Shown: positions 1 to 44,827, numbered from the stretch's first letter. The stretch is DNA of 64,000 nucleotides from an uncultured Gammaproteobacteria bacterium (GCA_964612215.1 CAZTEW010000001.1:12432-76431); one strand, 5' to 3'. Numbers and translations: made by a program. The notes: a model not told the origin generated them from the letters alone.

Positions 1-1243
1 GGGTGTTGGGTTGGGAATAAATTGCCAGAAAAGCCGCCAGCCAGGCTAAAGTACCGATGCTGACCGTTGCCTGGACAATCTTTTTCCACGGCAGCCGGAG
101 TTGTTCCCAAAACCAAGCGCTCCAAAGACAAAAAAGCGGGTAAAGGGGGAGAAGATAGCGCATGAATTTGACGCTAAATCTGCCGACGACCAAAAAGTAA
201 GCGAGGAAAAAAACCACCAGAATTATTTCTTTGGCCTCGATATCTTCTTCGCCCTTGATTCTCACCCGCCGATAAAGACTCAAGAAATACCAGGCGGTGG
301 CCAAGAAACTCATCGTTCCCAAGGTAATGCCCATGCCCCAAAGATATAAATTTTTGAGGTGATAAAGATAAGGGACAGTATCCACATATTGGAGAGTAAA
401 GGGGAAAGTGAAAGCATCTTTGGTCATTTGGTGTTGAGCCTGGATTTGCTGCCAAAAAGTCGGGAAATCAAGCAGGGCATAGGGTTCGGTTAAAGCAAAA
501 ACAGTGATTGTCGTGAGAAAAACAATCAGGCCGAAGGCAAGTAAAGGCTTAATTATTCTCCAGGTGGCGGTTTTTTTCCTGAAAATAACTAAACTGATTT
601 TCTGCCACCAGCGAGCCGTTTGTTGGCGCCAATATTTGAGAAAAATTAAAACCAGATCAAAAGCAAAAGCAGCGCCGATAGCGCTAACCAAAACTGAGGC
701 GCTGATTTTAGTGGCTAAAGCCAAGCCAAAGCTGATGCCCAGCCAGACAGCTCGCCGCCGGCTTTGTTTTTCATAAAAAAGAATCAATTGGTAAAGAGTC
801 AGGAAGATAAAAAAATTAAGTGGAACATCAACTGCGTAAAAGTGAGAAAGCTGGACCGGCAAGGCGCAAATCGCATAGAGAAAAGCCGCCTTTAACCCGA
901 TTTTTTCGGAAAAAACCCTTTGGCCGATTTTAAAAATCAAGAGCAGGGTTGCCAGGTCAAAAATGACTGATAAAATCCGGCCGACCCAATGCAGGTGGCT
1001 GTAGTGAGCCCACTGAGGACCGAAAATCAGACTGACCAACCAACCGGCAAGTTTTAAAAGATAAAGAGGCAAACTGCCATAAGCAAAAAACTTAGGATTG
1101 AGGTTGCCGGGACGCAAATTCTCCGCCACCATGATAATCATTCTTTCGTCAGGGTGGAGGTGATAACCCTGGTCCCAGTTAAGGCCATAGAGGCGGAGAA
1201 TGGCGCCAAATGCCAGAATCATGAATAATGAATTACGAATCAT
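1..1243 (-). CDS. GT-C fold membrane glycosyltransferase (GT39 PMT/ArnT-like), 3' end cut by window edge
   Basis: Own minus-strand translation from ATG at 1243 reads MIRNSLFMILAFGAILRLYGLNWDQGYHLHPDERMII..YGSLPLYLLK..LALATKISA with no stop down to position 1. Absent from the ORF track because no in-window stop. Paralog of the 1248..2774 product (shared WDQGY-HPDE, YGSL, LALATKI motifs). Polytopic. Confidence 0.55.
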   Translation of the reverse strand, partial: MIRNSLFMILAFGAILRLYGLNWDQGYHLHPDERMIIMVAENLRPGNLNPKFFAYGSLPLYLLKLAGWLVSLIFGPQWAHYSHLHWVGRILSVIFDLATLLLIFKIGQRVFSEKIGLKAAFLYAICALPVQLSHFYAVDVPLNFFIFLTLYQLILFYEKQSRRRAVWLGISFGLALATKISASVLVSAIGAAFAFDLVLIFLKYWRQQTARWWQKISLVIFRKKTATWRIIKPLLAFGLIVFLTTITVFALTEPYALLDFPTFWQQIQAQHQMTKDAFTFPFTLQYVDTVPYLYHLKNLYLWGMGITLGTMSFLATAWYFLSLYRRVRIKGEEDIEAKEIILVVFFLAYFLVVGRFSVKFMRYLLPLYPLFCLWSAWFWEQLRLPWKKIVQATVSIGTLAWLAAFLAIYSQPNT

Positions 1244-1247
1244 GAAT

Positions 1248-2774
1248 TTAGATTTCGAGAAGACTTTCATAATCACTTTCCGTGAAAAATTGGGTTTTTT
1301 GGTAAATCCTAATGACCGGGTGGTCAAAAACAGACCAGGTTTCTTCAGCCATTTCATCAGGGATTAAAGGATAAGAGCTAAGCTCTTTGATTTTAAGAAA
1401 ACCTAATTGATTAGCGAAGAGCAAATCATAAAAGCGGCTGGTCAGAGGAAACTGGTTTGGCAAGCGCTGGTGGTTGCTGAACATTCTCCGGCTTTGGACG
1501 ATAAAATAGTCAGCTTCAGCTAAGAGACCAGGCAGTTCTTGCCGGAGGCTGGCTTGCTCGTCAAGATGATAAAAATCAAAGCCGACTTTTTTCAAACTGC
1601 CGGTTAGCGGTACTTCCAGCATGTTGCCGGATTCGGTCAGAACGGTTGCTGCCGCCGGCAGATTGGCATTCAGCCAGTCAGTCGCGGTGATTCTGACATC
1701 AGGCCGGAGATAGATAGAGAAAAAGATCAAAGTCCAGAGAAAGTTAGTAAAAAGTAAAAAGTAAAAAGTAAAAAGTAAAAATTTATTTTTTATTTTTTTA
1801 TATAAATAAGCGGTGAAGATGGCGAAAAAGGGAAAGCTGGGAGCAATAAAGCGGGTCCATTTGGCAAAAAGAAAAGCATGGGGTAGAAAAAGGAGCAGAA
1901 AAGCAGCGACAACCAAACGCCAATTCGGATTTCTGATGGCCAGAAAAAAACCGATGGTTCCCAAAAGCAAAACCGCTGGTCCGAGAGCGTAAGGGAGAAT
2001 TTTCTGAAACTGGAAAAGAACAGGCAGGGTGTTAATGAACTGGCGAGTGTAAAAAACTACTGGTTGGCCGCGGCCGACACCAGTTTCATAATTTAAAGAA
2101 TGGGAGAAAGCAGAGTAATCCAGCAGGCTATAAGGGAAAGCGCAAAAGAAAACAAAACCGGCAAGGAAAAGAGGAACGATCACTTTTTCGATTAAAAGAA
2201 AAGGTTTCGTTAAAACGAAAAATAACAAAATTGGTAGCCAAAACAAAACAGTAATTTTGGTAGCCAGAGCCAGACCAAAGCTGGCTGCGGCAAGATAAAG
2301 AAATTTGAGTTTTTTTGTTTTTTGGTACTGCATACCCAAATAAAGAAATAAAAATAGCCAAAAGGTCAAGTTAGATTCTGGGGTGGCAAAATGAGCTTGC
2401 TGGATTAGGCCAGGGAGAGTGGCGCTGAGCGCGGCCGCGAGAAGCGCCTGTTTGGGAAAGAGCCGGCGGGCAATTAAATAAACAAGAATAATCGTTAAAG
2501 TGGAAAAAAGAGCGGCGTAAAAACGGCCAATAATAATAGCGGGTAGCGTGTGGCCGATGGCGGCCAGCAGCAGCTTGGTGAAATAAATGAGATAAACAGT
2601 TAATGAGCCGTAAGAGAAAAGCTCAGGGTTCATCTGGCGGGGAAAAGAGAGTCTTTCAACTGCCGCGGCAAGATGGTATTCGTCCGGATGGAAGAAGTAA
2701 CCCTGACCCCAGTCAAGCTTAAAAAACCTGAAAAAGCCGCTAATCAGAATAATCAAGAGAAGTTTAAACGACAT
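1248..2774 (-). CDS. GT-C fold membrane glycosyltransferase (GT39 PMT/ArnT-like)
   Basis: 508 aa, more than 10 predicted TM helices. N-terminal loop motif DWGQGYFFHPDE, then YGSLTVYLIYF. Tandem paralog of the upstream truncated gene. Confidence 0.6.
   Translation of the reverse strand: MSFKLLLIILISGFFRFFKLDWGQGYFFHPDEYHLAAAVERLSFPRQMNPELFSYGSLTVYLIYFTKLLLAAIGHTLPAIIIGRFYAALFSTLTIILVYLIARRLFPKQALLAAALSATLPGLIQQAHFATPESNLTFWLFLFLYLGMQYQKTKKLKFLYLAAASFGLALATKITVLFWLPILLFFVLTKPFLLIEKVIVPLFLAGFVFFCAFPYSLLDYSAFSHSLNYETGVGRGQPVVFYTRQFINTLPVLFQFQKILPYALGPAVLLLGTIGFFLAIRNPNWRLVVAAFLLLFLPHAFLFAKWTRFIAPSFPFFAIFTAYLYKKIKNKFLLFTFYFLLFTNFLWTLIFFSIYLRPDVRITATDWLNANLPAAATVLTESGNMLEVPLTGSLKKVGFDFYHLDEQASLRQELPGLLAEADYFIVQSRRMFSNHQRLPNQFPLTSRFYDLLFANQLGFLKIKELSSYPLIPDEMAEETWSVFDHPVIRIYQKTQFFTESDYESLLEI
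1747..1781. repeat. Heptanucleotide tandem repeat (gtaaaaa)x5 inside GT-C gene
   Basis: Direct read: gt dinucleotide recurs at 1747, 1754, 1761, 1768, 1775. Encodes FLLFTFYFLLFT on the minus strand. Confidence 0.85.
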
Positions 2775-3669
2775 AGATAATGAGGATAGTCATTAATCCC
2801 CAGCCCATGACGCTTAAAGAAAGAGGAATGTCACTGGTCAGGAGCTTCTCCGGCCTTTCGCCGGCCTGTTTCTCATAAATCAGCTGGGCGTAACGCATAA
2901 TGCCGAAAATGACAAAAGGAATCGTGGCGGCCATCAACCACTTTCGGCCCAGAGCCTTAGGGAAGTTAATCACTAAAAATTGAGTTAAGGGCTCGCTGAA
3001 TTCAGGCGGTTCAGTGAAAAAGGTAAAAAGAGCATAAGAGACCAAAGCGGCGTTGGCAAAAGTTGAAGTGTAAAAATCAAGCAGTTGGCGGCGGTAGGCT
3101 AACAGCGCCGGTCTGGTTTTGGCGCCTTCCAAAACCAGTTCTGATCGCCGCTTGCCGGAGGCAATAAAAAGAGCCAGAAAAATAGCGGTGAGCATAAGCC
3201 AAATGGGAACATGAAAGCCGGTCAAGGCCTCGCCGACAAAAATGCGGATGATAAAAGAACTGGCAATGATTAAGATATCAACGACGGCAAATTTTTTTAA
3301 GAAAGAAGAATAAAGAAGGTGCAGGCTGATAAAAAGAAGGCCGAGGAGAAAAACGCTGATGCCTAAAAGCAAGCTGATAATCAAGCCGCTGATCGCCAGA
3401 AAAACAGCTAGCTGAATAGCAGTCTGAGGCTTTATTTTGCCGCTCGCCAGCGGCCGGTGTTTTTTTTGAGGATGGCGTTGGTCATAAGGCAGATCGATTA
3501 AGTCATTAAAAAGATAAGAAGCAGAAGAAAGTAGGCAAAAGACGCCGAACCCGCAAAGACAGCGGAGGAAAATTTCCGGGTTAAGCAGCTGGCCGGTAAA
3601 AATAATGGCGGTAAAAACCAGCGCGTTCTTAATCCACTGACCCGGTCTCAGAGAAGTGATTATAAACAT
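2764..3669 (-). CDS. UbiA-family prenyltransferase, decaprenyl-phosphate phosphoribosyltransferase-like
   Basis: 301 aa polytopic protein. N-terminal RPGQWIKNALVF and NDLIDLPYDQRHP (NDxxDxxxD) motifs, typical of the DPPR synthase branch of UbiA. Confidence 0.6.
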   Translation of the reverse strand: MFIITSLRPGQWIKNALVFTAIIFTGQLLNPEIFLRCLCGFGVFCLLSSASYLFNDLIDLPYDQRHPQKKHRPLASGKIKPQTAIQLAVFLAISGLIISLLLGISVFLLGLLFISLHLLYSSFLKKFAVVDILIIASSFIIRIFVGEALTGFHVPIWLMLTAIFLALFIASGKRRSELVLEGAKTRPALLAYRRQLLDFYTSTFANAALVSYALFTFFTEPPEFSEPLTQFLVINFPKALGRKWLMAATIPFVIFGIMRYAQLIYEKQAGERPEKLLTSDIPLSLSVMGWGLMTILIIYVV

Positions 3670-3734
3670 TATAAAGATTATAAGAGCTTGCTCGCTTCGC
3701 TGTGCTTCCTCTTGTAATTCTCCTTACAGTCAAA

Positions 3735-4958
3735 TTATAACTCGCTTGCGACCTTTTTGCCAATTTCAATCGCATAATTAACGCCTCGATCCCAAGGATA
3801 AATTAAGGACTGGTTAGCCAGAGAGACATTTTTCAGCGGGGTTTTCATCCCTGGCATGATTTTTGAATAATTAATGGGTATGACCGGTTGAGCATAAAGA
3901 TTAGCGAACAGCGAACAGCGAACAGCGAACAGCCTGGGGTTGATTTTTTTCAAATAGGGGAGAAACTCTTTGAGAACTTCATCTTTTTTCATCTTAAAGT
4001 AGCGGTGGTTTTGCGGATAATAGCCGCCAACATAAAGAAGACGGCAGTGATGATAGTACTGCCGATTGATGAAGTTGGTGTGTTCGACTACGGCCACAAA
4101 AGGAAAACCAGGTTCGTTAATATTGAGCCAGTAAGTATTGTCAGTTAAGAACTTTTCTCTAAGAGTTAAAACTAAAACTACGGCGCCGACAAATTTTAAA
4201 GATTGGAGACGGCGACGGTAATCAACTGGCAAATGAGGGGCGATTTTTAGAAATTCCGGCGTCGGCACCGTGACGATGATAGCATCAAAACCCTTTAACT
4301 CACCGAGTTTTTTTATGGTTGTACTTGTCAAAATTTGGCCACCGCTGGCTTTGATTTCCTCAGCCAGGCGGTCAATTAAAACCTGAAAACCGCCTTTTAA
4401 GTAGCCTAATTGTGAACTTCTTTTTTTGATTCTGGCCCAAAACCAAGACATGGCGATTTCATCGGCAAAAGAGCCGAACTTGCTTTGCAGCAGCGGCTGC
4501 CAAAGGGTTTGATAGACGGCTTGGCCGTAATATTTGCGCAGCCATTTTTCCGCCGTGACTTCTTCAAAAGACAGCGCTTTGCTGGCTTTAAGCCAAGCCG
4601 TCGCTAAACCCGCGCGGATTTTTTCCGGCCAGGAAAGGTGTGGAAAAGTCATTAGCGCTAATGGCGAATCAAAGGCAGAAATCCGGTTACTTCGGAAAAT
4701 AGAAGTTTTCGGCTGGTAATAGTGAAGCTGGTTTTGAAGATTAAGTTCGCTGATTAAATTTTGGACATGATGATCAGAAGTGAAAAGGTGGTGATAGAAA
4801 CGTTCTAATGACCATTGCCAGTTTTTTTCTCGAAACCCAGCCGCCAGGCCGCCTAAATAGCCTTCTTTTTCAAAAACAGAAACAGCCTGTCCCTTTTTGG
4901 CCAATTCGTAAGCTGCGGTTAGGCCGGTAATGCCAGCGCCAATAACAGCAATCTTCAT
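3735..4958 (-). CDS. FAD/NAD(P)-binding oxidoreductase (amine-oxidase/protoporphyrinogen-oxidase/UDP-galactopyranose-mutase-like fold)
   Basis: 407 aa. N-terminal Rossmann motif MKIAVIGAGITGLTAAYELAKKGQAVSVFEKEGYLGG. HHLFTSD resembles the UGM PHIFHT signature. Exact family unresolved. Confidence 0.55.
   Translation of the reverse strand: MKIAVIGAGITGLTAAYELAKKGQAVSVFEKEGYLGGLAAGFREKNWQWSLERFYHHLFTSDHHVQNLISELNLQNQLHYYQPKTSIFRSNRISAFDSPLALMTFPHLSWPEKIRAGLATAWLKASKALSFEEVTAEKWLRKYYGQAVYQTLWQPLLQSKFGSFADEIAMSWFWARIKKRSSQLGYLKGGFQVLIDRLAEEIKASGGQILTSTTIKKLGELKGFDAIIVTVPTPEFLKIAPHLPVDYRRRLQSLKFVGAVVLVLTLREKFLTDNTYWLNINEPGFPFVAVVEHTNFINRQYYHHCRLLYVGGYYPQNHRYFKMKKDEVLKEFLPYLKKINPRLFAVRCSLFANLYAQPVIPINYSKIMPGMKTPLKNVSLANQSLIYPWDRGVNYAIEIGKKVASEL
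3903..3930. repeat. Heptanucleotide tandem repeat (agcgaac)x4 inside oxidoreductase gene
   Basis: Direct read at 3903-3930. Encodes AVRCSLFANLY on the minus strand. Confidence 0.85.
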
Positions 4959-4970
4959 AATTAATAATTA

Positions 4971-5447
4971 TCACAGAGCAAAGAGCAATCCGAGGATGAC
5001 GAGTGCGCCGCCAGCCAGAGCGGTGAGCCAGGTGGGTAGAGTGATGCCAGCTTCAGGCAGAGGAATCGGCGTCGGTGTTGGTAAGGCGTCTGGAGGAGCA
5101 GGCGGCGGCGTTGGCGTTGAAGTTGGTCCTGGGGTGGGCGTGGAAGTTGGTCCGGGCGTGCCGGTAGGCGTCGGTGTGCCGGTTGGCGTCGGTGTGCCGG
5201 TTGGCGTCGGTGTGGAGACGCCAGCGACATTAAAGCTTAAAGTGCAGGCGGCAACCGGATCCCTTTCGGCGGGTGGTAGTTGGGTGGGTGTGGCGGTCGG
5301 TTCCAGGGCCGGCGCCGGCTGGGGCGCGGTCGGAGCGACCGGCTGCTGGCGGAGCTGGTAGAGCCGCAAGGCAGTTATCACCGCAATCACCGCCAAGATG
5401 ACGGTCGCGCCTAAAATAAAAATTGTCGTCCGGTTTTTCTTTGGCAT
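4971..5447 (-). CDS. Small Pro/Thr-rich surface protein with N-terminal signal-anchor and C-terminal LPEAG-hydrophobic tail
   Basis: 158 aa. N-terminal TM. TPTPTGTPTPTG tandem repeats (tandem at the DNA level, 5100-5220). C-terminus LPEAGITLPTWLTALAGGALVILGLLFAL. Confidence 0.5.
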   Translation of the reverse strand: MPKKNRTTIFILGATVILAVIAVITALRLYQLRQQPVAPTAPQPAPALEPTATPTQLPPAERDPVAACTLSFNVAGVSTPTPTGTPTPTGTPTPTGTPGPTSTPTPGPTSTPTPPPAPPDALPTPTPIPLPEAGITLPTWLTALAGGALVILGLLFAL

Positions 5448-5451
5448 ATTT

Positions 5452-6843
5452 TTATCTCCAGCCTAGCGAGGGATTTTTTACCATCGCCTCGACCGTATAA
5501 CTACCTGAACTGGGAACTTCATACTGGACATAGAACTTGCCTGATTTTTTGCCGGTCGGTATTTGCCAGCTGCCGGCGTTAAACCGGAAGCGAGCGTCAG
5601 TAATGCCCTGAGGTTCTTCGCAACCGCCAGCGACCGCAAAATAAATTGTCTCGCCGACGCTGATCGTATTGAGATTGGTAATCGGCTGCCAATCCTCATT
5701 AAAAGCCGCCAGGCTGGTACAGCTTAAACTGTATTCTTGACCAGCTTCGCACCCCTCAACACAACCATGATCGCTGTTATGGCAGATGTCAAATCTAATG
5801 TCAGACTGCCAGGCACAATATTGAGGCGGACCATTGGCACTATTAGTATTGCCTCTGGTCCAGACTTCGTCTGGAGTGAGAGTCACTGCTTCGGAAAAAT
5901 CGCCACCGCTACAGAAGCAACTATCATTGTTTTGATGATCACACCAACGAGAAAACCAAACAGCCGTGCCGCTAATTGGCTGGTCAGTATTATTGATGAT
6001 CTTGACGCCGCCTTTATTTGCCTGACATTCTAAAGTGCCGCTGCCGACGCAAGTGCCGCCTTGACATTTGCCGGAAGCGCAATCTGAATCATAAACACAA
6101 CCAGCGTGACTGCCGCAGCTTTTACCACTAGCGCAATTGCCATTATCGACACTGCATGATTCCCAGTGAGCACAATCATTAGGGCCAGAGCAACAACCAG
6201 GTTTGCCAGGTTCTGGTTCAGGTTTACAGACGCTGCAGTTCGGATCATCGGTTTTCATGCATTGCTGGCCTTCGGCACAATCCTTGGTGCCGCTGCAGCA
6301 TTGCGTTCCCGGCGGGCTGGTGGGGCCAGGTGTTAAATCACCAGAACAGGGAGAGTTAGCTGGGTCAGGATTGACTGCTCCGGCGGAACAAGTGTACTGA
6401 TGGGTATCAGCATCACACCAAGTATCTGGCAAATCAATATAATTACAAGCTTGGTCACAGCCCCAGCGGCCGTCGGCATCGCAAGTGCTCCAGCCAGGTT
6501 CATGACCATTACATTTATGTTGGGGATTGTCAGGGTAATTACAGATATTATCGGCCATTTTGCGGACTTCCTGGCGCTGTTTGACTAGGGTCAAAGCCAC
6601 CGGCAGGGAAATGAGAATCAAAGCGATACCGGCAATTGCGGCGGCGACCCGGCCTTTTTTCTTGTTTGCCGCCGGCTTAATTTCCGGAGTTTCTTGGATG
6701 TTCCCCGGCTCTGGCTGTTTGTCAGTTGGCGGTGGCGGTGGCGGTGGCGGTGGTAGCTCAGCTGGCGGCACTGGCTGGCTGGCGGGAGGATTAATACCGG
6801 AAAGAGTTGGCGTTGCTGGCGGATTGGTCGGTTGGTCAGGCAT
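5452..6843 (-). CDS. Cys-rich ectodomain protein with polyproline N-terminal tail and single TM (type II topology)
   Basis: 463 aa. N-terminal about 60 aa Pro-rich including PPPPPPPPP. Then TM, then LVKQRQEVRKMA motif. Extracellular region has more than 50 Cys in CxxGxC-like spacing. 1-nt overlap with the upstream gene. Confidence 0.5.
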   Translation of the reverse strand: MPDQPTNPPATPTLSGINPPASQPVPPAELPPPPPPPPPTDKQPEPGNIQETPEIKPAANKKKGRVAAAIAGIALILISLPVALTLVKQRQEVRKMADNICNYPDNPQHKCNGHEPGWSTCDADGRWGCDQACNYIDLPDTWCDADTHQYTCSAGAVNPDPANSPCSGDLTPGPTSPPGTQCCSGTKDCAEGQQCMKTDDPNCSVCKPEPEPGKPGCCSGPNDCAHWESCSVDNGNCASGKSCGSHAGCVYDSDCASGKCQGGTCVGSGTLECQANKGGVKIINNTDQPISGTAVWFSRWCDHQNNDSCFCSGGDFSEAVTLTPDEVWTRGNTNSANGPPQYCAWQSDIRFDICHNSDHGCVEGCEAGQEYSLSCTSLAAFNEDWQPITNLNTISVGETIYFAVAGGCEEPQGITDARFRFNAGSWQIPTGKKSGKFYVQYEVPSSGSYTVEAMVKNPSLGWR

Positions 6844-8126
6844 TAAGGACTAAATTTAAAGTTTAAAAACAAGCCGCTAAAAATAAGGCTCAATCCCAGT
6901 ATGACAAAGAGAAGAGTGGGTGTCAAGTAGCCTGACTGAGGCACCCCGCTTTCAGTTGACGGCAAAGAAGTTCTTGGAACGCTGGTTGGCGTGGGGCTGG
7001 GGGTTGAAGTTGGCGAAACCTGGCCTGAAGGCGTGGCTGTAAAAGAAGGCAGGTCAGCCTCGCCGGCGGCAAGAATGGTAAATTCGCGGGAAACCGCGGC
7101 GCCGTCAGCGGTAGTAATCGTGATCGTGTGAACACCAGGTTCAAGATTAGCCGGCGGTACCCAGTGCCACTGGCCGTTTTCGTCAATCAAGACTTCGACT
7201 TCGAAGCTGGCTGAAGATTCCAGAATCAGGGTGACGGTTTCACCCTGAAGGCCGGTGCCCTGAAACTCAGGCCTCAAAGTATTTATCCCTTCACCTTCTT
7301 CAGGGTTAAGAATGGTTAACGGACTGATCCCGGGCCGATTGAGATTCAAAGGGTTAAGATTAAAGCCAGAGTTCCGGAATCCGGACGGCTGAGTCGGTTG
7401 AACCAGCGCCGGCCGGCGAAAATCATAAGTCTGGCCGAGAGTGATTTCTGGCACCGGCGAATCGTTTTGGCTGGTGACCAAAACCGTCGCTTCTCCCCAG
7501 CGGCCGGCCTGGACAAAAATTTCCTCGCTAGCGCTAGTACGGTCATAGTCAAAATAGCGAGTCAGGTCAGCGGTTCTGGCCATGCTTAAAGGAATTGTCC
7601 AGTGGCCGTCGGCCTGACTCAAGCCGGAAAGCGGACTGGCGCCAGCCAGGGTTAAATAAACAATCGCTTCCTGGCTAGGAGTGCCATCGGGTTGGAAAAC
7701 CTGGCCGTAGGCGGCGTCAGCCGCCGCTGCGGTCTGAAGATAAGGGCCGGTGGCGACTTCGTAAGGCCGGCCCTGCTGGTCATAGAGTTTCTCACTAGAG
7801 CCAATTTTTAAATAATATTTTGTTTCCGGCTGAAGATTTTCAATTTTTAAATAATGAAGCAAGTTAGTCTGGGTTTGAGTCTGGGTTTGGGTTAGAGAAA
7901 GAGAAGTTCCGTATTTGACAAGACCGACCGTTTCCTGATCAGTGATCCAGGAGACAGTAAAGCTGTTGGCATCAATATTAGTCACTTTAATTTGTTGAGG
8001 GATTGTTTGGGGAGCGGCGCCGAGAAAGCCAGTCCCGCCTTTTCTCAGCAAGAAAAGGCTAGCGGTCACGGCTGTCAGAATTAAAAAAAGGGCCAGGAGA
8101 GTGGGAATTGATTTTTTAGCTTTCAT
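6843..8126 (-). CDS. Surface protein with FN3-like and bacterial Ig-like domains and C-terminal hydrophobic anchor
   Basis: 427 aa. N-terminal signal-anchor. FN3-like FTVSWITDQETVGLVKYGTS..YYLKIGS. Ig-like TVTLILESS..HTITITTADGAAV. PT-rich linker. C-terminus VPQSGYLTPTLLFVILGLSLIF. Confidence 0.5.
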   Translation of the reverse strand: MKAKKSIPTLLALFLILTAVTASLFLLRKGGTGFLGAAPQTIPQQIKVTNIDANSFTVSWITDQETVGLVKYGTSLSLTQTQTQTQTNLLHYLKIENLQPETKYYLKIGSSEKLYDQQGRPYEVATGPYLQTAAAADAAYGQVFQPDGTPSQEAIVYLTLAGASPLSGLSQADGHWTIPLSMARTADLTRYFDYDRTSASEEIFVQAGRWGEATVLVTSQNDSPVPEITLGQTYDFRRPALVQPTQPSGFRNSGFNLNPLNLNRPGISPLTILNPEEGEGINTLRPEFQGTGLQGETVTLILESSASFEVEVLIDENGQWHWVPPANLEPGVHTITITTADGAAVSREFTILAAGEADLPSFTATPSGQVSPTSTPSPTPTSVPRTSLPSTESGVPQSGYLTPTLLFVILGLSLIFSGLFLNFKFSP

Positions 8127-8425
8127 TCTTTTCCAGGCTGGCCGCTAGGATTGGCACTAGAGGTTGTTTCGTTAGCTTCTGCGACCGGCCCTAATTCCTC
8201 CAGCCGGCCTAATTCTTCTTCTGAAATCCGAAGACGTTCTTTAAGCTGGTTGATTACCTCTTGATTTAATTTAGGATCCAAGGGCTGCATTTGTTGATCG
8301 AGAATTTCCGGTAGAGTATATCGAGTTAAAGCTCGGTAAACATCAAAGCCTATCCAGACCGCCACGGTCAGTAAAGTGGAAACAGCTAAGCTGATTAAAT
8401 CGCGGTTGATTTTTTTCTTTTTCAT
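8123..8425 (-). CDS. Small membrane protein (pilus-operon associated, function unknown)
   Basis: 100 aa. MKKKK plus one TM plus charged C-terminal region. 4-nt overlaps on both sides suggest translational coupling. Confidence 0.4.
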   Translation of the reverse strand: MKKKKINRDLISLAVSTLLTVAVWIGFDVYRALTRYTLPEILDQQMQPLDPKLNQEVINQLKERLRISEEELGRLEELGPVAEANETTSSANPSGQPGKE

Positions 8426-9039
8426 GGCAAAGAATAGATTTGAGCCTGAATTGTTAACATAATTGATGTTTCTTCTTCAAGGCCTGACTTTTCTTCAGCA
8501 AAGTCAAAGTTTTTTAAAATTACCAGTCTTTCCAGTTTTTCTAAATCAGTTAAGAATTTTTTTAAATCTTCATAATTGCCAGCGGCGCCAAAATCCACTG
8601 CCAGCGTCAATAGTTCGCTTTTTGGCTCAACAGGCAAGAGATCAGCCTTTTCTAGTTTAAAGCTGATGAGCTGAACGTTGTTTTTATAGGCCAAATATTC
8701 CAGTTGTTTGATGAGCTGAGAAAACTCGCTTTTTTTCGGCAAGGCGGCTTCAATATAGACCAGGTCTGGCTGGACGCGCAAATATTCCTTTTGCGCCAAG
8801 GAAAGAGAATTGATTTTTTGTTCCAGCTTTTGGCTAGCCTCACCCTTATCACGGATTTCCTTGATTAAGCCGCTGATGGTTCTTAAACTCGGCCTAATCG
8901 CGAAAAAGCCGCAAAAAGCGACCGTTAAAAGCGAAACTGCTAAAAAAGTAACATCTTTCACCGCCTGATCTTGATAAAGACCACCCAGGCGATGATAGTA
9001 GCGACGGTATTGGTGGTAAGGCTGTTGGCGATTATTCAT
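8422..9039 (-). CDS. pilO: Type IV pilus assembly protein PilO-like
   Basis: 205 aa. Single N-proximal TM, coiled-coil segment, C-terminal ferredoxin-like region typical of PilO. Immediately follows the PilN-like gene. Confidence 0.5.
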   Translation of the reverse strand: MNNRQQPYHQYRRYYHRLGGLYQDQAVKDVTFLAVSLLTVAFCGFFAIRPSLRTISGLIKEIRDKGEASQKLEQKINSLSLAQKEYLRVQPDLVYIEAALPKKSEFSQLIKQLEYLAYKNNVQLISFKLEKADLLPVEPKSELLTLAVDFGAAGNYEDLKKFLTDLEKLERLVILKNFDFAEEKSGLEEETSIMLTIQAQIYSLP

Positions 9040-9607
9040 TTTTGATTCTGTTTAAAGAATCAGCGGCCGGTGTTGCTTCACTGGCGCTGACAGTAAACTC
9101 AATCAGGCCTGATTCTTTTTTCCTGACTTCTTCAAGATTAATTTTTTCTAACTGGAGCTTTTCTTTTAAGCCGGTGAGAAAATGATGAAAGCCGGCATCA
9201 GAAATGGAGGTGGCGCTAATTTGCCAGCCGCCTTTTTCGATTTTTAACTCTGTTAAAACAACGTCCAGGGGAATGATGACCGACAATTGCTGCAGCCGGC
9301 TGGCGGCCGGAATTTGTTCACCGCTTAAGCGGTTGATTTCATTAAGTCTTTGCTGCAGCCGGCGGAAATTGGTTTCTAAGTCTTCTAACGAGCCGACAAT
9401 CGCCTGTTGTTGTTTAATGGTTTCGCTCAAGTCCATCAATTCCCGGTCAAGCTTAAACCGGGAAAGAAAACAAACAATCACGATGAGTTCAGTAGTGATG
9501 ACAATCCAGCGGCCGACAGTCAGGGTCCAATGAAGCAACTTGCCTAAGGAAGTTTGTTCAAAAGTTTTGATAAAAAGCAAATTGATTTCTTTTTTCCAGA
9601 CAGCCAT
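9032..9607 (-). CDS. pilN: Type IV pilus assembly protein PilN-like
   Basis: 191 aa. N-terminus KKEINLLF matches the PilN INLLP motif. One TM, then periplasmic coiled coil. Confidence 0.55.
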   Translation of the reverse strand: MAVWKKEINLLFIKTFEQTSLGKLLHWTLTVGRWIVITTELIVIVCFLSRFKLDRELMDLSETIKQQQAIVGSLEDLETNFRRLQQRLNEINRLSGEQIPAASRLQQLSVIIPLDVVLTELKIEKGGWQISATSISDAGFHHFLTGLKEKLQLEKINLEEVRKKESGLIEFTVSASEATPAADSLNRIKNE

Positions 9608-9640
9608 ATATTTTCAGTATAGAAATTTTCCCGGGATTTG

Positions 9641-9868
9641 TCAAAGGGCAGCAAGTTGGCTTTTGCAGCGAGCCGCTTTGTTCTGATGGAGGATGCCTTT
9701 TTTCACCGCCCGGTCAAGCACCGCATAAGCCAATGCCAGGCTTTTTTTGTTTTTCTTAGCCTTAGCTTTTTTAATCGCCATTTTGACCTTGTTTTTAATC
9801 CGGAGATTAACTAATCTACGGCGCTGGTCTTTCCGCAGGGCTTTTTTCGCTGATTGAGTGATAGGCAT
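9641..9868 (-). CDS. rpsT: 30S ribosomal protein bS20
   Basis: 75 aa. MPITQSAKKALRKDQRRRLVNLRIKNKVK..KKGILHQNKAARCKSQLA is canonical S20. Confidence 0.85.
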   Translation of the reverse strand: MPITQSAKKALRKDQRRRLVNLRIKNKVKMAIKKAKAKKNKKSLALAYAVLDRAVKKGILHQNKAARCKSQLAAL

Positions 9869-9928: not shown

Positions 9929-11647
9929 ATGGTTGCTAATTTCTTAGGTCGGCGGCAGACGAACATTTCTTCCGCTGCCGCCATTATCAGTTTAATGATT
10001 GCTTTTTCCCGAATTCTGGGCTTGATGCGCAATCGGGTTTTGGCCCATTTTTTCTCTTCCACCGAGCTGTCTCTTTATTTTGCCGCCTTTCGTTTGCCAG
10101 GGGCTGTTTTCGACATTTTAGTTTTCGGCGTCATTTCCGCCGCTTTTATTCCTACCTTTACTGCCTATCTGGCTAAAGATGAAGAAAAACAGGCCTGGCA
10201 AATTGCCAATGGAGTTTTAATTCTGGCGTTGCTGGTATTTTTAGTCCTCTCCGGCTTGATTTTTTTATTGGCGGCGCCTCTTTACCGCCGGATTATTCCT
10301 GGTTTTAGCCAGGAGCAAATTGACCAAGTGGTTTTCCTGGCCAGAATCTTAATTGTTTCCCAGGGATTTTTCCTGCTGTCTTACTTTTTGACCGGCATTT
10401 TGGAATCATGGCAGCGCTTTTTAGTGCCGGCGATTGCGCCGATTTTCTATAACCTGGGAATTATCGGCGGCACGGCTTTTTTGGCGCCGAAATTGGGATT
10501 AACAGGGTCGGTTTTAGGCGTCGTGGCCGGCGCTTTTTTTCATTTTATTATTCAATTGCCTCTAGCTTTCAACCTTGGCTTCCGGCCGCGGTTAATTTTT
10601 AATTTTTCCCAGCCCGGTTTGAAAAAGGTGGGTCGATTAGCCTGGCCGCGGATAATTGAGCTTTCTCTTTTAGAGCTGGCGAAAACCATTGAGCTTTTTT
10701 TTGCTTCTCTAGTTTCAGTCGGCGCCTATACTTGGTTGACTTTTGCCAATTCGCTGCAGCTCTTGCCGGTGGATCTTTTCGGCACCAGCTTGGCCAAAGC
10801 CACCCTACCGACCTTTTCTTCTTTAGCGGCCCGCGAGGAAAATGACCAGTTTAAAAAAGTTTTTCTTTCATCCTGGCAGCAAATTCTCTTTTTAACTTTG
10901 CCGGCGTCGGTTTTTCTGGTGGTTTTGCGGGTGCCGATCGTCCGGCTGGTTTTTGGTGCCGCCCGCTTTACCTGGGAATCAACTTTGGAGACCGGGTACA
11001 CTCTTTCGGTTTTTTGCCTGGCGATTTTTTCTCAGGCTTTAGTTTTACTGCTTAACCGCGCCTTTTATGCTTTTCAAGAAACAAAAACAGCCGTGAAAGT
11101 TTCGGTTTTTTCTACTTTAATCAATATTATTCTCAGCGGACTCTTGATCTTAATTTTAAAATTTCCCCTTTGGGGGCTGGCTTTGTCTTTTACCCTGGCT
11201 TCTTTATTGCAGTTTTTAATTCTTTTTCGGCTGCTGGCAAACAAACTGGGCGGCTTTAGCAAAGAAGAAACCCTAACTCCTTTTTTGAAGACCGCCTTAG
11301 CAGCTGTTGTTGCCGGCGGTCTGATGTTTTTTCTTTTGAAAATTTTTGACCGGTCGGTTTGGGATAAACGGCTGTCTTTTTTAAATTTTTTCGGCTTGAG
11401 ACTTTCCACCAGCCTGGAGAAATTCGTTCTCGATACCCGCTACACGACTAATCTCATATTATTAACGGCTTTAGTGGCCCTAGCAGGCGCCGGGGCTTAT
11501 TTAGGCTTAGCTTGGGTTTTGAAAATCAAGGCCTTAATGGTCTTTTTAAAAACCGATTACCGGCTGGCCGGAAGAAATTTCTTTAAAGAGCCAGACCGAG
11601 AAATAATAACAGCAACCCCGAAAGAAGGCTCAGAACCGTTGGTGTGA
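9929..11647 (+). CDS. murJ: Lipid II flippase MurJ (MviN)
   Basis: 572 aa, 14 TM helices. N-terminus SRILGLMRNRVLAHFFSSTELSLYFAAFRLPGAVFDI matches the MurJ signature. Confidence 0.85.
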   Translation: MVANFLGRRQTNISSAAAIISLMIAFSRILGLMRNRVLAHFFSSTELSLYFAAFRLPGAVFDILVFGVISAAFIPTFTAYLAKDEEKQAWQIANGVLILALLVFLVLSGLIFLLAAPLYRRIIPGFSQEQIDQVVFLARILIVSQGFFLLSYFLTGILESWQRFLVPAIAPIFYNLGIIGGTAFLAPKLGLTGSVLGVVAGAFFHFIIQLPLAFNLGFRPRLIFNFSQPGLKKVGRLAWPRIIELSLLELAKTIELFFASLVSVGAYTWLTFANSLQLLPVDLFGTSLAKATLPTFSSLAAREENDQFKKVFLSSWQQILFLTLPASVFLVVLRVPIVRLVFGAARFTWESTLETGYTLSVFCLAIFSQALVLLLNRAFYAFQETKTAVKVSVFSTLINIILSGLLILILKFPLWGLALSFTLASLLQFLILFRLLANKLGGFSKEETLTPFLKTALAAVVAGGLMFFLLKIFDRSVWDKRLSFLNFFGLRLSTSLEKFVLDTRYTTNLILLTALVALAGAGAYLGLAWVLKIKALMVFLKTDYRLAGRNFFKEPDREIITATPKEGSEPLV

Positions 11648-12686
11648 GAAAGCCGGTTGCCGGCAAGTCTTCAGCGTCGGCCACCGTGAAAGAGACCGAG
11701 TCAGTGGTGGTTTGGCCGCTGCTGTCAGTGGCAGTGACTGTGGCCGTATGGCTGCCGGTTTCCAATTCGCTGGGCGGCGTCCAAGACCAGTTGCCGGCCG
11801 CATCAGCATAGACCATGCCGGTGATCGGCGTTGATTGCACGGTGATGGTGATTTTCGCTCCGGGAGCCGCGGTGCCAGATAAAGTTGGCGGATTACTGCT
11901 GCTGGAAATACTGCTTAAGCTGACCGGATTACTGGAGGTTCCGCCACCAGAAGCGGTAGTCGGTGTTGCCGTCGGCGAGGCGCGAGTTGGCGTCGGCGTG
12001 TTAGTGGGTTCGCCAGCTGATTGAGTGGGTGTGGGAGTATTCGTTACTCCGGCTGATTCTGTCGGCGTGGCCGTGGCTTCTGGCGGTATGGTTGTTGGTG
12101 TCGCCGTGGCTGTTGCCCCACCGCCAATCGTGTAAGAGCCATTGCTCGTCGGCGTCAAAAGAATATCGACATTGTCAATCTTGCTTTGAATTTTGCTTTG
12201 TTGAGGATCGAAACTTAAAACCACCGGATTAACCGCCGGCACTTCATTAGCCACGAGATTAAAAGAAGCGAGTAAAGTATCGCTGGCAGCGGTAAAGCCT
12301 TCAGTGGTAATATTAGCGCAGGCGATATCAATTTCAACCTGACTGCCTGTTGGAGTAATGGTTTTCACCGGACACATCCAGTTGCCGCTCGTCAGAAAAG
12401 AAGGATTAATTTGTAGACTAGAAGCCGTTAGGTTGCCGCTCAACGGATAAGTAATCCGCACCGCAATCGAAGAAATGGGAATGCTGACTGGATTAAAATA
12501 GACGCTGACTGGAAATGATTGGCCGACTTCATAATTACCTGAAGCTGGCGAAAGAGAAACTAGGGCTGTGCCGCTTGGCGTCGAAGCTCTTTTTCTGATT
12601 TCCTGACGCTGTTTGACTAAATAAACCCCCAAAGGAATGGCGACAATGACCAAAATAATAAAGAGTAAAATGGCAATTTTTTTCAT
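11583..12686 (-). CDS. Surface protein: N-anchor, cohesin-like domain, PT linker, Ig-like domain, C-terminal LPATG-hydrophobic signal
   Basis: 367 aa. N-terminus MKKIAILLFIILVIVAIPLGVYLVKQRQEIRKRA. Cohesin-like beta-sandwich region identical to that of 13294..14712. C-terminus LPATGFLTPTVLSLLSGLLLLFLGLAL. Confidence 0.5.
   Translation of the reverse strand: MKKIAILLFIILVIVAIPLGVYLVKQRQEIRKRASTPSGTALVSLSPASGNYEVGQSFPVSVYFNPVSIPISSIAVRITYPLSGNLTASSLQINPSFLTSGNWMCPVKTITPTGSQVEIDIACANITTEGFTAASDTLLASFNLVANEVPAVNPVVLSFDPQQSKIQSKIDNVDILLTPTSNGSYTIGGGATATATPTTIPPEATATPTESAGVTNTPTPTQSAGEPTNTPTPTRASPTATPTTASGGGTSSNPVSLSSISSSSNPPTLSGTAAPGAKITITVQSTPITGMVYADAAGNWSWTPPSELETGSHTATVTATDSSGQTTTDSVSFTVADAEDLPATGFLTPTVLSLLSGLLLLFLGLAL
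12205..12605. repeat. Copy A of perfect 401-bp direct repeat (partner 14219..14619)
   Basis: Compared both stretches base by eye and they are identical. Boundaries set by flanking mismatches. Encodes the shared RKRASTPSGT..VLSFDP cohesin-like domain. Confidence 0.8.
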
Positions 12687-12689
12687 CGT

Positions 12690-13307
12690 TTATTTAATTT
12701 GGTAAATGCCTGTTAGAAAATTAAGCTTTACTTTTTGGTTATCTTTAGTTGTTAATTTAGTCTGTTGAGGATCAAAAGCTAGGATTAAATTTTCAATCGC
12801 CGCTTCGGCCGTCAATTCAATTGTGCCTAAAATATCTTCTCCGTTTAGTTGAAAACCAGTCAGGGTTGGGTTAACAGCCGCTAATTCAAGATTAACAGTT
12901 TTATTTTGCCAGTCAACCCAAACTTTATTGATTGGGTAGATCCAGCCCTGTTGCTGCCAGTCAGAATTAGGTTGAATTTTAGTGCTTTGGGGTTGTAAAG
13001 GCGGGATTTTATCAAAAGGATAACTTAAGTGAAGAGCAATGCCAGAAAGAGAAAGATTTTGACCGGTTAGTCTGATCTCCAAAGATAGGTTTTGATCAAC
13101 CACTAATTGACTGTTTTGAGGAACAAGAAAGAGACTGGCTTGAGTTTCTGTCGTCATTTGCTTTTCCGGCAAACTAGATTCCGTGACTGCTTGGTGGAAA
13201 GCTGGATTTTTTGTTCTCTGCAGATTGAGAAAAACTAGCCAGCTGCCTATCACTAATAAAATGATTAGACCAAATAAAAACAACTTTTTCATTTTATTGA
13301 TCTCCAA
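12690..13307 (-). CDS. Membrane-anchored single-domain protein (cohesin-like)
   Basis: 205 aa. N-terminal TM then LNLQRTKNP. Beta-rich domain ending LAFDPQQTKL, similar to the FDPQQSKI region of the neighbours. Confidence 0.4.
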   Translation of the reverse strand: MEINKMKKLFLFGLIILLVIGSWLVFLNLQRTKNPAFHQAVTESSLPEKQMTTETQASLFLVPQNSQLVVDQNLSLEIRLTGQNLSLSGIALHLSYPFDKIPPLQPQSTKIQPNSDWQQQGWIYPINKVWVDWQNKTVNLELAAVNPTLTGFQLNGEDILGTIELTAEAAIENLILAFDPQQTKLTTKDNQKVKLNFLTGIYQIK

Positions 13308-14712
13308 GTACAGTCAAGGCAGTATAGTTTAATAAAACAGCAGAGATATCATCAATTTCGATGAAACTATTAGCATTGACATCAAATTGCTGATTACTAG
13401 CGCTAACCGGCACTGATAGAGCCGTGTAAACGCCAATAACGGCGCCTACGTCATCAATGTCAAGCTGATTATCATTATTAAAGTCGCCGCTCTTAACTTC
13501 AATTGAATTCCAAGAAGCAGAGGCCTGATTATTGCTGGCTGTGAGAGTGATGTTGCCAAGTTTTTTTTGTAAATGACCGTTATCTTTAACAAGAACTTCA
13601 ACATTAACGCCACCAGCAGGGAAAGAGAGATTGGCCAGAGAAATAGGATTAACAGGTGCAAAAGAACTATGAGCGCCGCTTTGACAAATAACACTGGGAT
13701 AAACTTGACCAGACGGTCCTTTAAGAGTTACCCGGATAGATTTAGAAATTCCTTGTTGATTGATTCCTTGCATTCTGAAACCAAAAGAGAGCGTGGGAGC
13801 GTTAGTCGTGGCTTCAGCAATATTTGACAAATTAGAAATGTTGCCCGCAGTATCAATAGATTTAATGGCAAAATAGTATTTTGTTCCGGGATTAAGTCCA
13901 GAAACAGTAAATGTTTCAGCTTTTCCAGGGTTGCCTGGGATTGGTAATCCACTCACTGGTGTAGCGCTAGACCAATTAGTGTTAGTAATCACTGAAGTAG
14001 AATAGCGCAGGTCGTAAAGGTTGGCTTTTCCAGCTGGTCCTGCGTCAGCGGGAGCGGTCCAAGACAAACTTAAGGAGTTAAAGGAGACGTTAGTTATATT
14101 CAGATTAGTGATGGCGGCTGGCGGTGTCAAGTCTAGGTTAATTGTATATGAAGCAGCGGCTGGCGGTGTTAAGAGAATGTCTTGATTTTGAGCTTTGCTC
14201 ATGATTTTACTGGCGGCTGGATCAAAACTTAAAACCACCGGATTAACCGCCGGCACTTCATTAGCCACGAGATTAAAAGAAGCGAGTAAAGTATCGCTGG
14301 CAGCGGTAAAGCCTTCAGTGGTAATATTAGCGCAGGCGATATCAATTTCAACCTGACTGCCTGTTGGAGTAATGGTTTTCACCGGACACATCCAGTTGCC
14401 GCTCGTCAGAAAAGAAGGATTAATTTGTAGACTAGAAGCCGTTAGGTTGCCGCTCAACGGATAAGTAATCCGCACCGCAATCGAAGAAATGGGAATGCTG
14501 ACTGGATTAAAATAGACGCTGACTGGAAATGATTGGCCGACTTCATAATTACCTGAAGCTGGCGAAAGAGAAACTAGGGCTGTGCCGCTTGGCGTCGAAG
14601 CTCTTTTTCTGATTTCCTGCTTTTCTTGAGTAAGTTGAGAAGCAACAACCAAACCAATGATTAAAATTAAAAGAAAGAAAAAACCCAAAAGATATTTTTT
14701 CATTTTATTCAT
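13294..14712 (-). CDS. Surface protein: N-anchor, cohesin-like domain, FN3 domain, C-terminal type I dockerin
   Basis: 472 aa. N-terminus LTQEKQEIRKRASTPSG. FN3 LSLSWTAPAD..YYFAIKSIDTAGN. Dockerin repeats GDFNNDNQLDIDDVGAVIGVY and QFDVNANSFIEIDDISAVLLNY with Ca-binding D/N at positions 1, 3, 5, 9, 12. Confidence 0.55.
   Translation of the reverse strand: MNKMKKYLLGFFFLLILIIGLVVASQLTQEKQEIRKRASTPSGTALVSLSPASGNYEVGQSFPVSVYFNPVSIPISSIAVRITYPLSGNLTASSLQINPSFLTSGNWMCPVKTITPTGSQVEIDIACANITTEGFTAASDTLLASFNLVANEVPAVNPVVLSFDPAASKIMSKAQNQDILLTPPAAASYTINLDLTPPAAITNLNITNVSFNSLSLSWTAPADAGPAGKANLYDLRYSTSVITNTNWSSATPVSGLPIPGNPGKAETFTVSGLNPGTKYYFAIKSIDTAGNISNLSNIAEATTNAPTLSFGFRMQGINQQGISKSIRVTLKGPSGQVYPSVICQSGAHSSFAPVNPISLANLSFPAGGVNVEVLVKDNGHLQKKLGNITLTASNNQASASWNSIEVKSGDFNNDNQLDIDDVGAVIGVYTALSVPVSASNQQFDVNANSFIEIDDISAVLLNYTALTVLGDQ
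14219..14619. repeat. Copy B of perfect 401-bp direct repeat
   Basis: Identical to 12205..12605, offset 2014 bp. Confidence 0.8.
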
Positions 14713-29276: not shown

Positions 29277-29283
29277 TATCTTC

Positions 29284-44820: not shown

Positions 44821-44827
44821 TCTTTTT

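Follow-up and report, generated by a model that had tools for sequence, protein, structure and literature searches.

We analyzed a gene cluster at the beginning of a 64,000-nucleotide stretch of DNA (GCA_964612215.1, CAZTEW010000001.1:12432-76431; hereafter, the window), deposited as that of an uncultured Gammaproteobacteria bacterium, in which an earlier note made from the sequence alone had seen a putative protein O-glycosylation module. The cluster encodes a flavin adenine dinucleotide (FAD) oxidoreductase (3735-4958), a UbiA-family enzyme of 301 amino acids (2764-3669) and two GT-C glycosyltransferase paralogues, GT-C a (508 amino acids, 1248-2774) and GT-C b (1-1270), the last of which runs off the window start and is visible as its N-terminal 423 amino acids. 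These genes lie on the minus strand, as do all genes from position 1 to position 9868, which are co-directional and separated by overlaps or gaps of at most 65 nt, with no convincing terminator between them. From 5΄ to 3΄, this run reads rpsT, pilN, pilO, a small-protein gene, the genes of an fn3 protein, a Cys-rich protein and a PT-rich protein, and then those of the flavoprotein, UbiA, GT-C a and GT-C b. The earlier note had placed the Pro/Thr-linker genes downstream of the enzymes; they do adjoin the enzyme genes, at higher coordinates, but are transcriptionally upstream of them in the same run. The best homologues of the window proteins were found in Shapiro-, Gottesman- and Levybacteria, and the sequence evidence points to a Microgenomates-type bacterium of the Candidate Phyla Radiation (CPR) as the source organism.

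We scored the UbiA-family enzyme against NCBIfam models. The three models for decaprenylphosphoryl-5-phosphoribose (DPPR) synthase gave 193.5 (NF008978), 187.4 (NF008977) and 150.3 bits (NF008976), whereas models for other prenyltransferases (quinone, heme, chlorophyll and archaeal lipid) all gave 52.6 bits or less. The DPPR-synthase signature reported in the earlier note (RPGQWIKN and NDLIDLPYDQRHP, both present exactly as quoted) was thus borne out by subfamily profiling, and the enzyme did not cluster with menaquinone or heme enzymes. Its top match in the PDB was Rv3806c of Mycobacterium tuberculosis (8j8j, E 1e-31). We then mapped onto it the Rv3806c sites for Mg2+, the pyrophosphate of phosphoribosyl pyrophosphate (PRPP), ribose 5΄-phosphate and decaprenyl phosphate (PMC10994848), and found identity at 12 of the 15 sites (R22, K28, Y70, N73, D74, D77, D81, K87, R90, Y138, K143 and K191). 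In Rv3806c, K28 and Y70 contact the 5΄-phosphate, and the sites that bind phosphoribose are reported to lack conservation between this enzyme and the UbiA superfamily (PMC10994848). A sister CPR subfamily of UbiA carries the NCBI name DPPR synthase, and the window enzyme contains no extra domain and no fused phosphatase (HAD PRP) domain. Its predicted activity is that of a DPPR-synthase-type enzyme, i.e. a PRPP:polyprenyl-phosphate phosphoribosyltransferase (PPPRS); we use the term DPPR-synthase-type rather than orthologue because the scores fell below the NCBI equivalog cut-offs.

Both GT-C proteins exceeded the Pfam gathering scores for PMT_2 (42.9 bits for GT-C a and 51.6 bits for GT-C b, cut-off 26.1) and PMT (33.1 and 30 bits, cut-off 22.7), and they are 26% identical to each other (E 5e-31), in agreement with the earlier description of two PMT/ArnT-type paralogues. 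GT-C a is predicted to have about nine transmembrane (TM) segments and a C-terminal soluble domain; orthologues of GT-C b are 553-621 amino acids long and are located after GT-C a in relatives. In both proteins TM1 is followed by HPDE, and in an alignment of 21 GT-C a orthologues P30-D31-E32 was invariant and F28 nearly so, forming an acidic motif in the first extracytoplasmic loop. PMT_2 matched 18 of these 21 orthologues, and the only Pfam families to match the GT-C proteins were PMT_2, PMT, TMEM260-like and STT3. Plain phmmer searches of the PDB with both proteins gave no match, and a profile of the 21 aligned sequences gave weak matches to AglB/STT3, PMT2 (E 8e-4 over approximately 140 residues) and ArnT (5ezm, E 0.28, weaker than AglB and PMT2). 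Three specific identities were considered and set aside: a GT39-type protein O-mannosyltransferase (no MIR domain was found in Pfam scans of the window proteins and the 21 orthologues, and the PMT2 profile match reached only the E-value given above), the lipid A aminoarabinose transferase ArnT (with which the proteins did not group, the 5ezm match lying below those to AglB and PMT2), and an actinobacterial Emb/Aft arabinofuranosyltransferase (no Emb/Aft/GT87-type family matched in the Pfam scan of the 21 orthologues, and Emb/Aft structures were absent from the PDB matches of the profile). From their sequences, the two proteins are assigned to the PMT/STT3/ArnT-like class. The weak matches to PMT_2, PMT and STT3 are by themselves no proof of a protein acceptor.

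The flavoprotein matched NF005560 (PRK07233) with 422.4 bits against a curated cut-off of 252, over residues 1-406 of 407. The earlier note had likened its HHLFTSD string, which is present as quoted, to a box of UDP-galactopyranose mutase (UGM). This likeness did not extend to the protein as a whole: the UGM model TIGR00031 gave 25.5 bits (cut-off 303.75), and in a fold comparison phytoene desaturase (PDS) and protoporphyrinogen oxidase (PPOX) were nearer to the flavoprotein than was UGM. Nor did the protein prove to be a PPOX, as the PPOX model gave 39.7 bits (cut-off 97.85); unlike PDS and PPOX, it lies far below the cut-offs of their family models, and its identity to its structural neighbors, plant-type PDS and PPOX, is 16-18%. 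On the basis of these scores, it is assigned to a separate family, NF005560, of uncharacterized function within the superfamily of PDS, PPOX, monoamine oxidase and UGM. This family is large (877 clusters at 50% identity, E <= 1e-30) and well conserved (55-60% identity among members across Microgenomates). Residues H56, H57, F59 and D62 of HHLFTSD were invariant in 15 homologues, and the invariant blocks included YHHLF.SD, WFWARIKKR, TYWLNIN..FPFVAVVEHTN and YPWDRG.NYA. The aromatic and basic WFWARIKKR block maps to helices that in PDS and PPOX make up the membrane-binding lobe, and it may be an interfacial or phosphate-binding element. A literature search returned nothing on the PRK07233/NF005560 family. 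Synthesis of carotenoids or heme is not known from CPR genomes.

The surface proteins encoded immediately upstream of the flavoprotein are rich in Ser, Thr and Pro. We called a protein STP-rich if it contained a 30-amino-acid window with at least 70% Ser/Thr/Pro, and compared the genes between the fn3 gene and the flavoprotein gene with other open reading frames (ORFs) within 10 kb in 26 CPR loci. STP-rich proteins accounted for 41/59 of the former and 3/348 of the latter (Fisher P 2e-38, a value that overstates independence, as the loci are related). The fn3/Big_13 protein of the window (6843-8126, Pfam domains) has a juxtamembrane S/T/P-rich stalk and a C-terminal VPQSG followed by a TM segment; its orthologues in all 28 pilN-linked loci contain an STP-rich segment (57-80%), nearly always just before the C-terminal TM segment. 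The small protein encoded directly upstream of the flavoprotein is divergent in sequence, and in most pilN-linked relatives it has an STP tract and a C-terminal TM segment. In the window, this is the PT-rich protein of 158 amino acids (4971-5447), which has an N-terminal TM segment, a TP-rich linker and a C-terminal LPEAG with a hydrophobic tail; its richest 30-amino-acid window is 87% S/T/P, and it contains TPTPTGTPTPTGTPTPTG, encoded by tandem DNA repeats of 18 nt (3.2 copies) and 24 nt (2.2 copies). Between the two lies a Cys-rich, Pro-rich membrane-anchored protein of 463 amino acids without a Pfam domain (5452-6843), which has partial homologues in the matching position in relatives. The proteins at 4971-5447, 6843-8126 and 11583-12686 share a C-terminal [LV]P-x-[AST]-G-x-x-x-P-T (LPEAGITLPT, VPQSGYLTPT and LPATGFLTPT) ahead of a hydrophobic tail, an arrangement that resembles a sortase signal; no sortase was identified among the window proteins scanned. 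The suggestion in the earlier note that a dedicated system glycosylates these surface proteins is therefore upheld to the extent that the link with STP-rich proteins is strong in relatives; this link is correlative, and it makes a protein acceptor plausible. TfpW-type pilin glycosylation was set aside, as no prepilin G-F/M-T-L-I-E motif occurs anywhere in the window, where the adjoining pilus genes are pilN and pilO only.

Two further observations concern the surface-protein genes. A run of four more genes at 11583-15982 encodes proteins that are secreted or anchored and have domains of the Big_13, fn3 or cohesin-like kind; several of these proteins have PT-rich linkers and N-terminal signal anchors ending in a conserved QE(I/V)RK(R/K)A. 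Moreover, the GC content is 0.50-0.525 between positions 4001 and 8000, compared with approximately 0.44 elsewhere in the window; this rise coincides with the Pro/Thr/Gly-rich surface-protein genes and is probably an effect of amino acid composition rather than a sign of foreign DNA.

To compare gene contexts, we fetched 169 loci by contig look-ups with exact proteins, by a scan of GTDB species genomes with the flavoprotein alignment and by a metagenome scan with the UbiA alignment. ORFs were called with a simple longest-ORF caller and homology was assigned by tblastn and blastp with window queries, so that divergent genes are under-counted. Three variants were found in CPR: pilN-pilO-small protein-fn3-(STP proteins)-flavoprotein-GT-C; the same order with UbiA between the flavoprotein and GT-C, as in the window; and MurJ-pilN-pilO-fn3-(STP protein)-UbiA-GT-C a-GT-C, which lacks the flavoprotein. 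GT-C a directly followed UbiA in 30 of 33 informative loci selected by UbiA, and in the window their reading frames share 11 nt. In the 32 CPR loci selected by the flavoprotein, the next gene encoded GT-C a (15 loci), UbiA followed by GT-C a (8 loci) or a conserved protein of approximately 549 amino acids with at least nine TM segments (9 loci), which has a weak hhalign link to the GT-C core (91.5% probability over 47 columns). In two loci (L008 and L009), the flavoprotein-UbiA-GT-C order was kept while the pilN context was replaced by Rho/LysM-M23 genes and a small Big_1 protein. The flavoprotein-(UbiA)-GT-C arrangement, which recurs in dozens of CPR loci, is not due to chance. The GT-C run ends with a DUF2298 membrane protein of 674-789 amino acids in six loci (L001, L003, L004, L008, L009 and L031), and in several relatives the DUF2298 gene is followed by a convergent gene for a LytR-CpsA-Psr (LCP) ligase. 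Radical SAM and DUF362 genes lie downstream of the module in one CPR locus (L007). Among non-CPR metagenome loci (L134-L169), which encode DPPR-synthase-like UbiA proteins with 34-39% identity, a DUF362 gene of approximately 360 amino acids directly follows UbiA in 13 loci.

The flavoprotein also occurs in another phylum, Chloroflexota (Anaerolineae, Caldilineae and Ardenticatenales), where it is 42-45% identical to the window protein. No GT-C or UbiA gene was found within 10 kb of the flavoprotein in the Chloroflexota loci (L042-L087). In 19 loci the flavoprotein gene was directly preceded by a gene for a PF03706 membrane protein (LPG_synthase_TM, MprF-flippase-like), the stop codon of the one often overlapping the start codon of the other, and in 7 loci it was followed by a UDP-glucose 6-dehydrogenase gene; neither the window nor the CPR loci yielded a PF03706 homologue. 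Three fusion proteins were also detected: in P0480 the flavoprotein follows an N-terminal PF03706 domain, and in P0437 and P0455 it precedes a class I S-adenosylmethionine (SAM) methyltransferase. These fusions hint at chemistry on a membrane lipid. Taken over all loci, UbiA is tightly coupled to GT-C, and the flavoprotein is coupled to polytopic proteins for lipids or lipid-linked substrates and is separable from UbiA.

Among systems defined by experiment, the nearest in logic is the three-component pentofuranose pathway, in which PPPRS makes polyprenyl-phosphate-ribofuranose (5-phosphate) from PRPP, a phosphatase removes the 5΄-phosphate, a flippase exports the product and a GT-C transfers the sugar outside the membrane, with optional epimerases converting ribofuranose to xylofuranose or arabinofuranose (PMC11127046). 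The cooperation of PPPRS with GT-C in pentofuranose addition was shown experimentally, and in Citrobacter youngae O1/O2 the system consists of ORF15 PPPRS, a MATE flippase and a GT136 GT-C, with or without an epimerase of the short-chain dehydrogenase/reductase (SDR) type (Kelly et al. 2024, PMC11127046). Like that system, the window locus has a UbiA-type PPPRS beside GT-C and an accessory, putatively tailoring, enzyme encoded alongside, and the prediction for its donor is synthesis in the cytoplasm and consumption on the outer side of the membrane. Unlike it, the locus has neither a fused nor a separate phosphoribose phosphatase and no MATE or SMR flippase, has two or more PMT_2-type GT-C proteins, has a PDS/PPOX-fold FAD protein in place of an SDR or DprE1/E2, and belongs to a monoderm CPR host in the context of surface proteins rather than O-antigen. 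The earlier note had drawn a parallel with actinobacteria, part of which stands: as in the mycobacterial decaprenyl-phospho-arabinose pathway (Rv3806c, Rv3807c, DprE1/DprE2, Rv3789 and Emb/Aft), the first enzyme is homologous, a lipid-linked furanose donor would serve several GT-C paralogues, and a flavoenzyme is found in the neighborhood of the pathway. The parallel fails in that the window flavoprotein is unrelated to VAO-type DprE1, the window yielded neither DprE2 nor a phosphatase of the Rv3807c type nor a GtrA-like protein, and the GT-C proteins do not match Emb/Aft families.

Systems that modify proteins offer further comparisons. In the D-arabinofuranose O-glycosylation of Pseudomonas aeruginosa group IV pilins (TfpW with PsPA7_6246-6249; bioRxiv 10.1101/2020.04.19.049825), the genes are likewise linked to pilus genes, and a DPPR-synthase-type donor pathway and a GT-C O-glycosylate Ser/Thr of a surface-appendage protein; the window differs in lacking a prepilin motif, DprE1/E2 and GtrA, and its candidate acceptors are membrane- or wall-anchored stalk proteins. 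The Pgf system of Streptococcus mutans, consisting of a synthase, the epimerase PgfE and the GT-C proteins PgfM1/M2, acts on LPXTG Ser/Thr-rich adhesins (PMC11092751). Together with streptococcal GtrB/PgtC2 (PMC11092751), it resembles the window locus in combining a lipid-donor synthase, a tailoring enzyme and two GT-C paralogues in a monoderm, with Ser/Thr-rich disordered regions of wall-anchored or membrane proteins as targets, as we propose for the window. In contrast to the window, the streptococcal donor synthase is a GT-A enzyme using nucleotide hexose or HexNAc rather than a PRPP-dependent UbiA, the tailoring enzyme is an SDR-type epimerase, and the GT-C families differ (PgtC2 is of the YfhO type).

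We propose that the module is a system for extracytoplasmic glycosylation that uses a polyprenyl-phosphate-pentofuranose donor and GT-C transferases, that it O-glycosylates the stalks of the co-transcribed surface proteins, and that the flavoprotein tailors the lipid-linked donor; we give this reading a probability of approximately 0.55. A lipid-linked pentofuranose donor consumed by GT-C proteins, as envisaged in the earlier note, remains the best reading of the locus and matches the pathway type defined in 2024 (PMC11127046). On the cytoplasmic face, UbiA would transfer ribose-5-phosphate from PRPP to polyprenyl phosphate, as its homology and substrate-binding residues suggest, and the product would be dephosphorylated and flipped by enzymes encoded outside the locus. 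The tandem GT-C proteins would then use the lipid-linked pentofuranose outside the membrane, consistent with their coupling to UbiA and the known chemistry of the family; one of them is probably responsible for the first residue and the other for its extension. The likeliest acceptors, to judge from gene association, would be the S/T/P-rich stalks of the proteins with sortase-signal-like ends encoded in the same transcript.

The flavoprotein, according to its context, fusions and fold, would be a peripheral-membrane enzyme that most likely tailors the lipid-linked donor before flipping. It might oxidize or epimerize the 2΄/3΄ position of the ribosyl group, in a role like that of DprE1, or it might modify a C=C bond of the polyprenyl carrier. 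Known systems have an epimerase at exactly the position of the flavoprotein, which favors the sugar, while its independence from UbiA, the action of the nearest fold on isoprenoid C=C bonds and its PF03706 and methyltransferase partners favor the lipid. We tentatively suggest that NF005560 may be a new class of enzymes that tailor lipid-linked glycosyl donors at the cytoplasmic membrane face, in either an oxidase/epimerase or a C=C-modifying version. In the former, a single flavin-dependent polyprenyl-phospho-ribose enzyme would replace DprE1/DprE2, and arabino- or xylofuranose would be expected on CPR surfaces; in the latter, a polyprenyl-phosphate reductase or desaturase would provide a carrier that is reserved for GT-C donors and is dolichol-like or marked in some other way. 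We infer the acceptor, the sugar and the flavoprotein reaction alike.

Several results weigh against the proposal. The UbiA scores lie below the NCBI equivalog cut-offs, narrowly for NF008978 (193.5 versus 207) and by more for the other two models (187.4 versus 234 and 150.3 versus 474), and the enzyme differs from Rv3806c at three of the 15 mapped residues (Q135H, Y157F and K208P), although Phe at position 157 also occurs in some mycobacteria (PMC10994848). The proteins scanned in the 64-kb window included no HAD or PAP2 phosphatase, which could lie elsewhere in the genome, and neither a flippase of the GtrA/SMR or MATE type nor DprE1/E2 was found in the window; its single SDR (50787-51578), considered as a DprE2 candidate, is a generic FabG/glucose-dehydrogenase-like protein. 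Many loci have the flavoprotein and GT-C without UbiA, and others have UbiA and GT-C without the flavoprotein; because the two genes are separable, a strict action of the flavoprotein on the UbiA product is weakened. Gottesmanbacteria-type loci keep flavoprotein-UbiA-GT-C with no STP-rich neighbor, and the loci of relatives encode an LCP ligase, DUF2298 and as many as five GT-C proteins, which would also fit a wall glycopolymer. In addition, the loci compared are phylogenetically related, and the counts are not independent.

The LCP ligase, DUF2298 and multiple GT-C proteins of relatives lead to a serious rival to the protein acceptor, in which the donor pathway is the same and the GT-C proteins build or decorate a wall glycopolymer or lipoglycan (arabinan- or ribofuranan-like) that is then linked to peptidoglycan, the surface-protein genes being neighbors by conserved gene order. 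Relatives with two to five tandem GT-C proteins, DUF2298 and an LCP ligase near MurJ and FemAB speak for such a polymer, as do the Gottesmanbacteria-type loci and the fact that the best-studied DPPR-synthase pathway, that of mycobacteria, feeds polysaccharide assembly (PMC11127046, PMC10994848). However, the GT-C proteins match PMT_2, PMT, TMEM260-like and STT3 and no Emb/Aft/GT87-type family, their nearest solved relatives by profile (AglB/STT3 and PMT2, both weak matches) modify proteins, the transcription unit they belong to shows a very strong enrichment in STP-rich proteins, and the LCP gene in relatives is on the opposite strand; we consider this possibility real but on balance doubtful. 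If UbiA were one of the usual prenyltransferases for aromatic compounds or heme, with a part in the synthesis of quinones, heme O or archaeal-type lipids, its membership in PF01040, to which all UbiA enzymes belong, would be explained, but models of such enzymes score far below those of DPPR synthase, and K28 and Y70, phosphoribose-binding residues at sites that the UbiA superfamily does not share (PMC10994848), are kept; we find this hardly credible.

The remaining rivals concern the flavoprotein. It might act outside glycosylation, for example as a PPOX-like or amine-oxidase-type housekeeping enzyme positioned by inherited gene order, as could be argued from its fold, from homologues labeled protoporphyrinogen oxidase by JGI pipelines and from UbiA-GT-C loci that lack it. 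We regard this as unlikely, since PPOX models score far under their cut-off, the adjacency to GT-C survives the changed context of the Rho/LysM-M23 loci, and in another phylum the gene is translationally coupled, and in one protein fused, to another polytopic lipid-handling protein. A UGM-like enzyme supplying galactofuranose, as in the actinobacterial galactofuranose/arabinofuranose logic invoked in the earlier note, is very improbable. The HHLFTSD motif does resemble the HIFHT box of UGM, but the UGM model and the fold comparison both place the protein elsewhere, and the locus contains no UDP-sugar or galactofuranose-transferase genes and shows no galactofuranose logic. Moreover, no mutase would be needed, because the PRPP-derived donor is already a furanose.

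At its 5΄ end, the co-directional run consists of rpsT (an S20-like ORF, 9641-9868), pilN (Pfam PilN, 9032-9607), pilO (Pfam PilO, 8422-9039) and the gene for a small protein of 100 amino acids (8123-8425) between pilO and the fn3 gene; the rpsT/pilN/pilO/small-protein order was also found in relatives. By consensus matching, two promoter-like sites with 11/12 matches were detected on the minus strand, one upstream of pilN (9616-9644) and the other (3734-3763) ahead of UbiA, at the 3΄ terminus of the gene for the flavoprotein; the latter may be an internal promoter. On the plus strand, a conserved neighbor (9929-11647) encodes MurJ, a lipid flippase of the MOP superfamily; no other flippase-type or MOP-family gene lies near the module. 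MurJ passed the TIGR01695 equivalog cut-off (280.9 versus 235.55 bits) and is therefore probably the flippase for lipid II. MurJ is co-directional with pilN...UbiA-GT-C in the variant loci without the flavoprotein, and a role for it in the glycosylation module would be speculative.

The wider window contains dnaK and groEL operons, FemAB-like genes and many PT-linker surface proteins. A second glycosylation cluster is located at 43336-49711 and comprises a membrane GT2 (43336-44820), two PMT_2-type GT-C genes (44828-46102 and 46081-47532), a 113-amino-acid TM protein, a WecA/MraY-like GT4 (47871-48887) and a convergent gene for a PEGA/SH3 protein. Levybacteria-type UbiA genes are found in the counterpart of 44828-49711, a GT-C-small protein-WecA-like GT4-UbiA-PEGA/SH3 cluster (L128-L133) in which UbiA lies between the GT4 and PEGA/SH3 genes; the window cluster itself has no UbiA. 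Elsewhere, a class I aminoacyl-tRNA synthetase of 717 amino acids (LeuRS-like, 29188-31341) matches the leucyl editing-domain model over approximately 50 residues, which suggests a reduced editing domain.

Bacteria of the CPR are ultra-small episymbionts that for the most part have not been cultured; their surfaces mediate attachment to their hosts, and to our knowledge almost nothing is known of their envelope glycans. We found no paper linking DPPR-synthase-type enzymes or pentofuranose donors to CPR/Patescibacteria. Pathways of this type are already known; what is new is its CPR setting, its embedding in a surface-protein operon and its flavoprotein partner. The locus predicts PRPP-derived lipid-linked pentofuranose donors in a large branch of CPR, the Microgenomates, a chemistry for which the tuberculosis cell wall is the best-known case and which was not generalized before 2024, and it also predicts likely targets in the stalks of the co-transcribed surface proteins. 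Furthermore, it singles out a large and well-conserved flavoprotein family whose genomic partners are GT-C proteins in CPR and a flippase-like PF03706 protein in Chloroflexota. Cultured members of the latter phylum, for example Caldilinea aerophila, appear to have this flavoprotein (L062 and L080) and would provide a tractable target. If the flavoprotein replaces DprE1/E2 or modifies the carrier lipid, it would be a new enzyme type in bacterial glycobiology.

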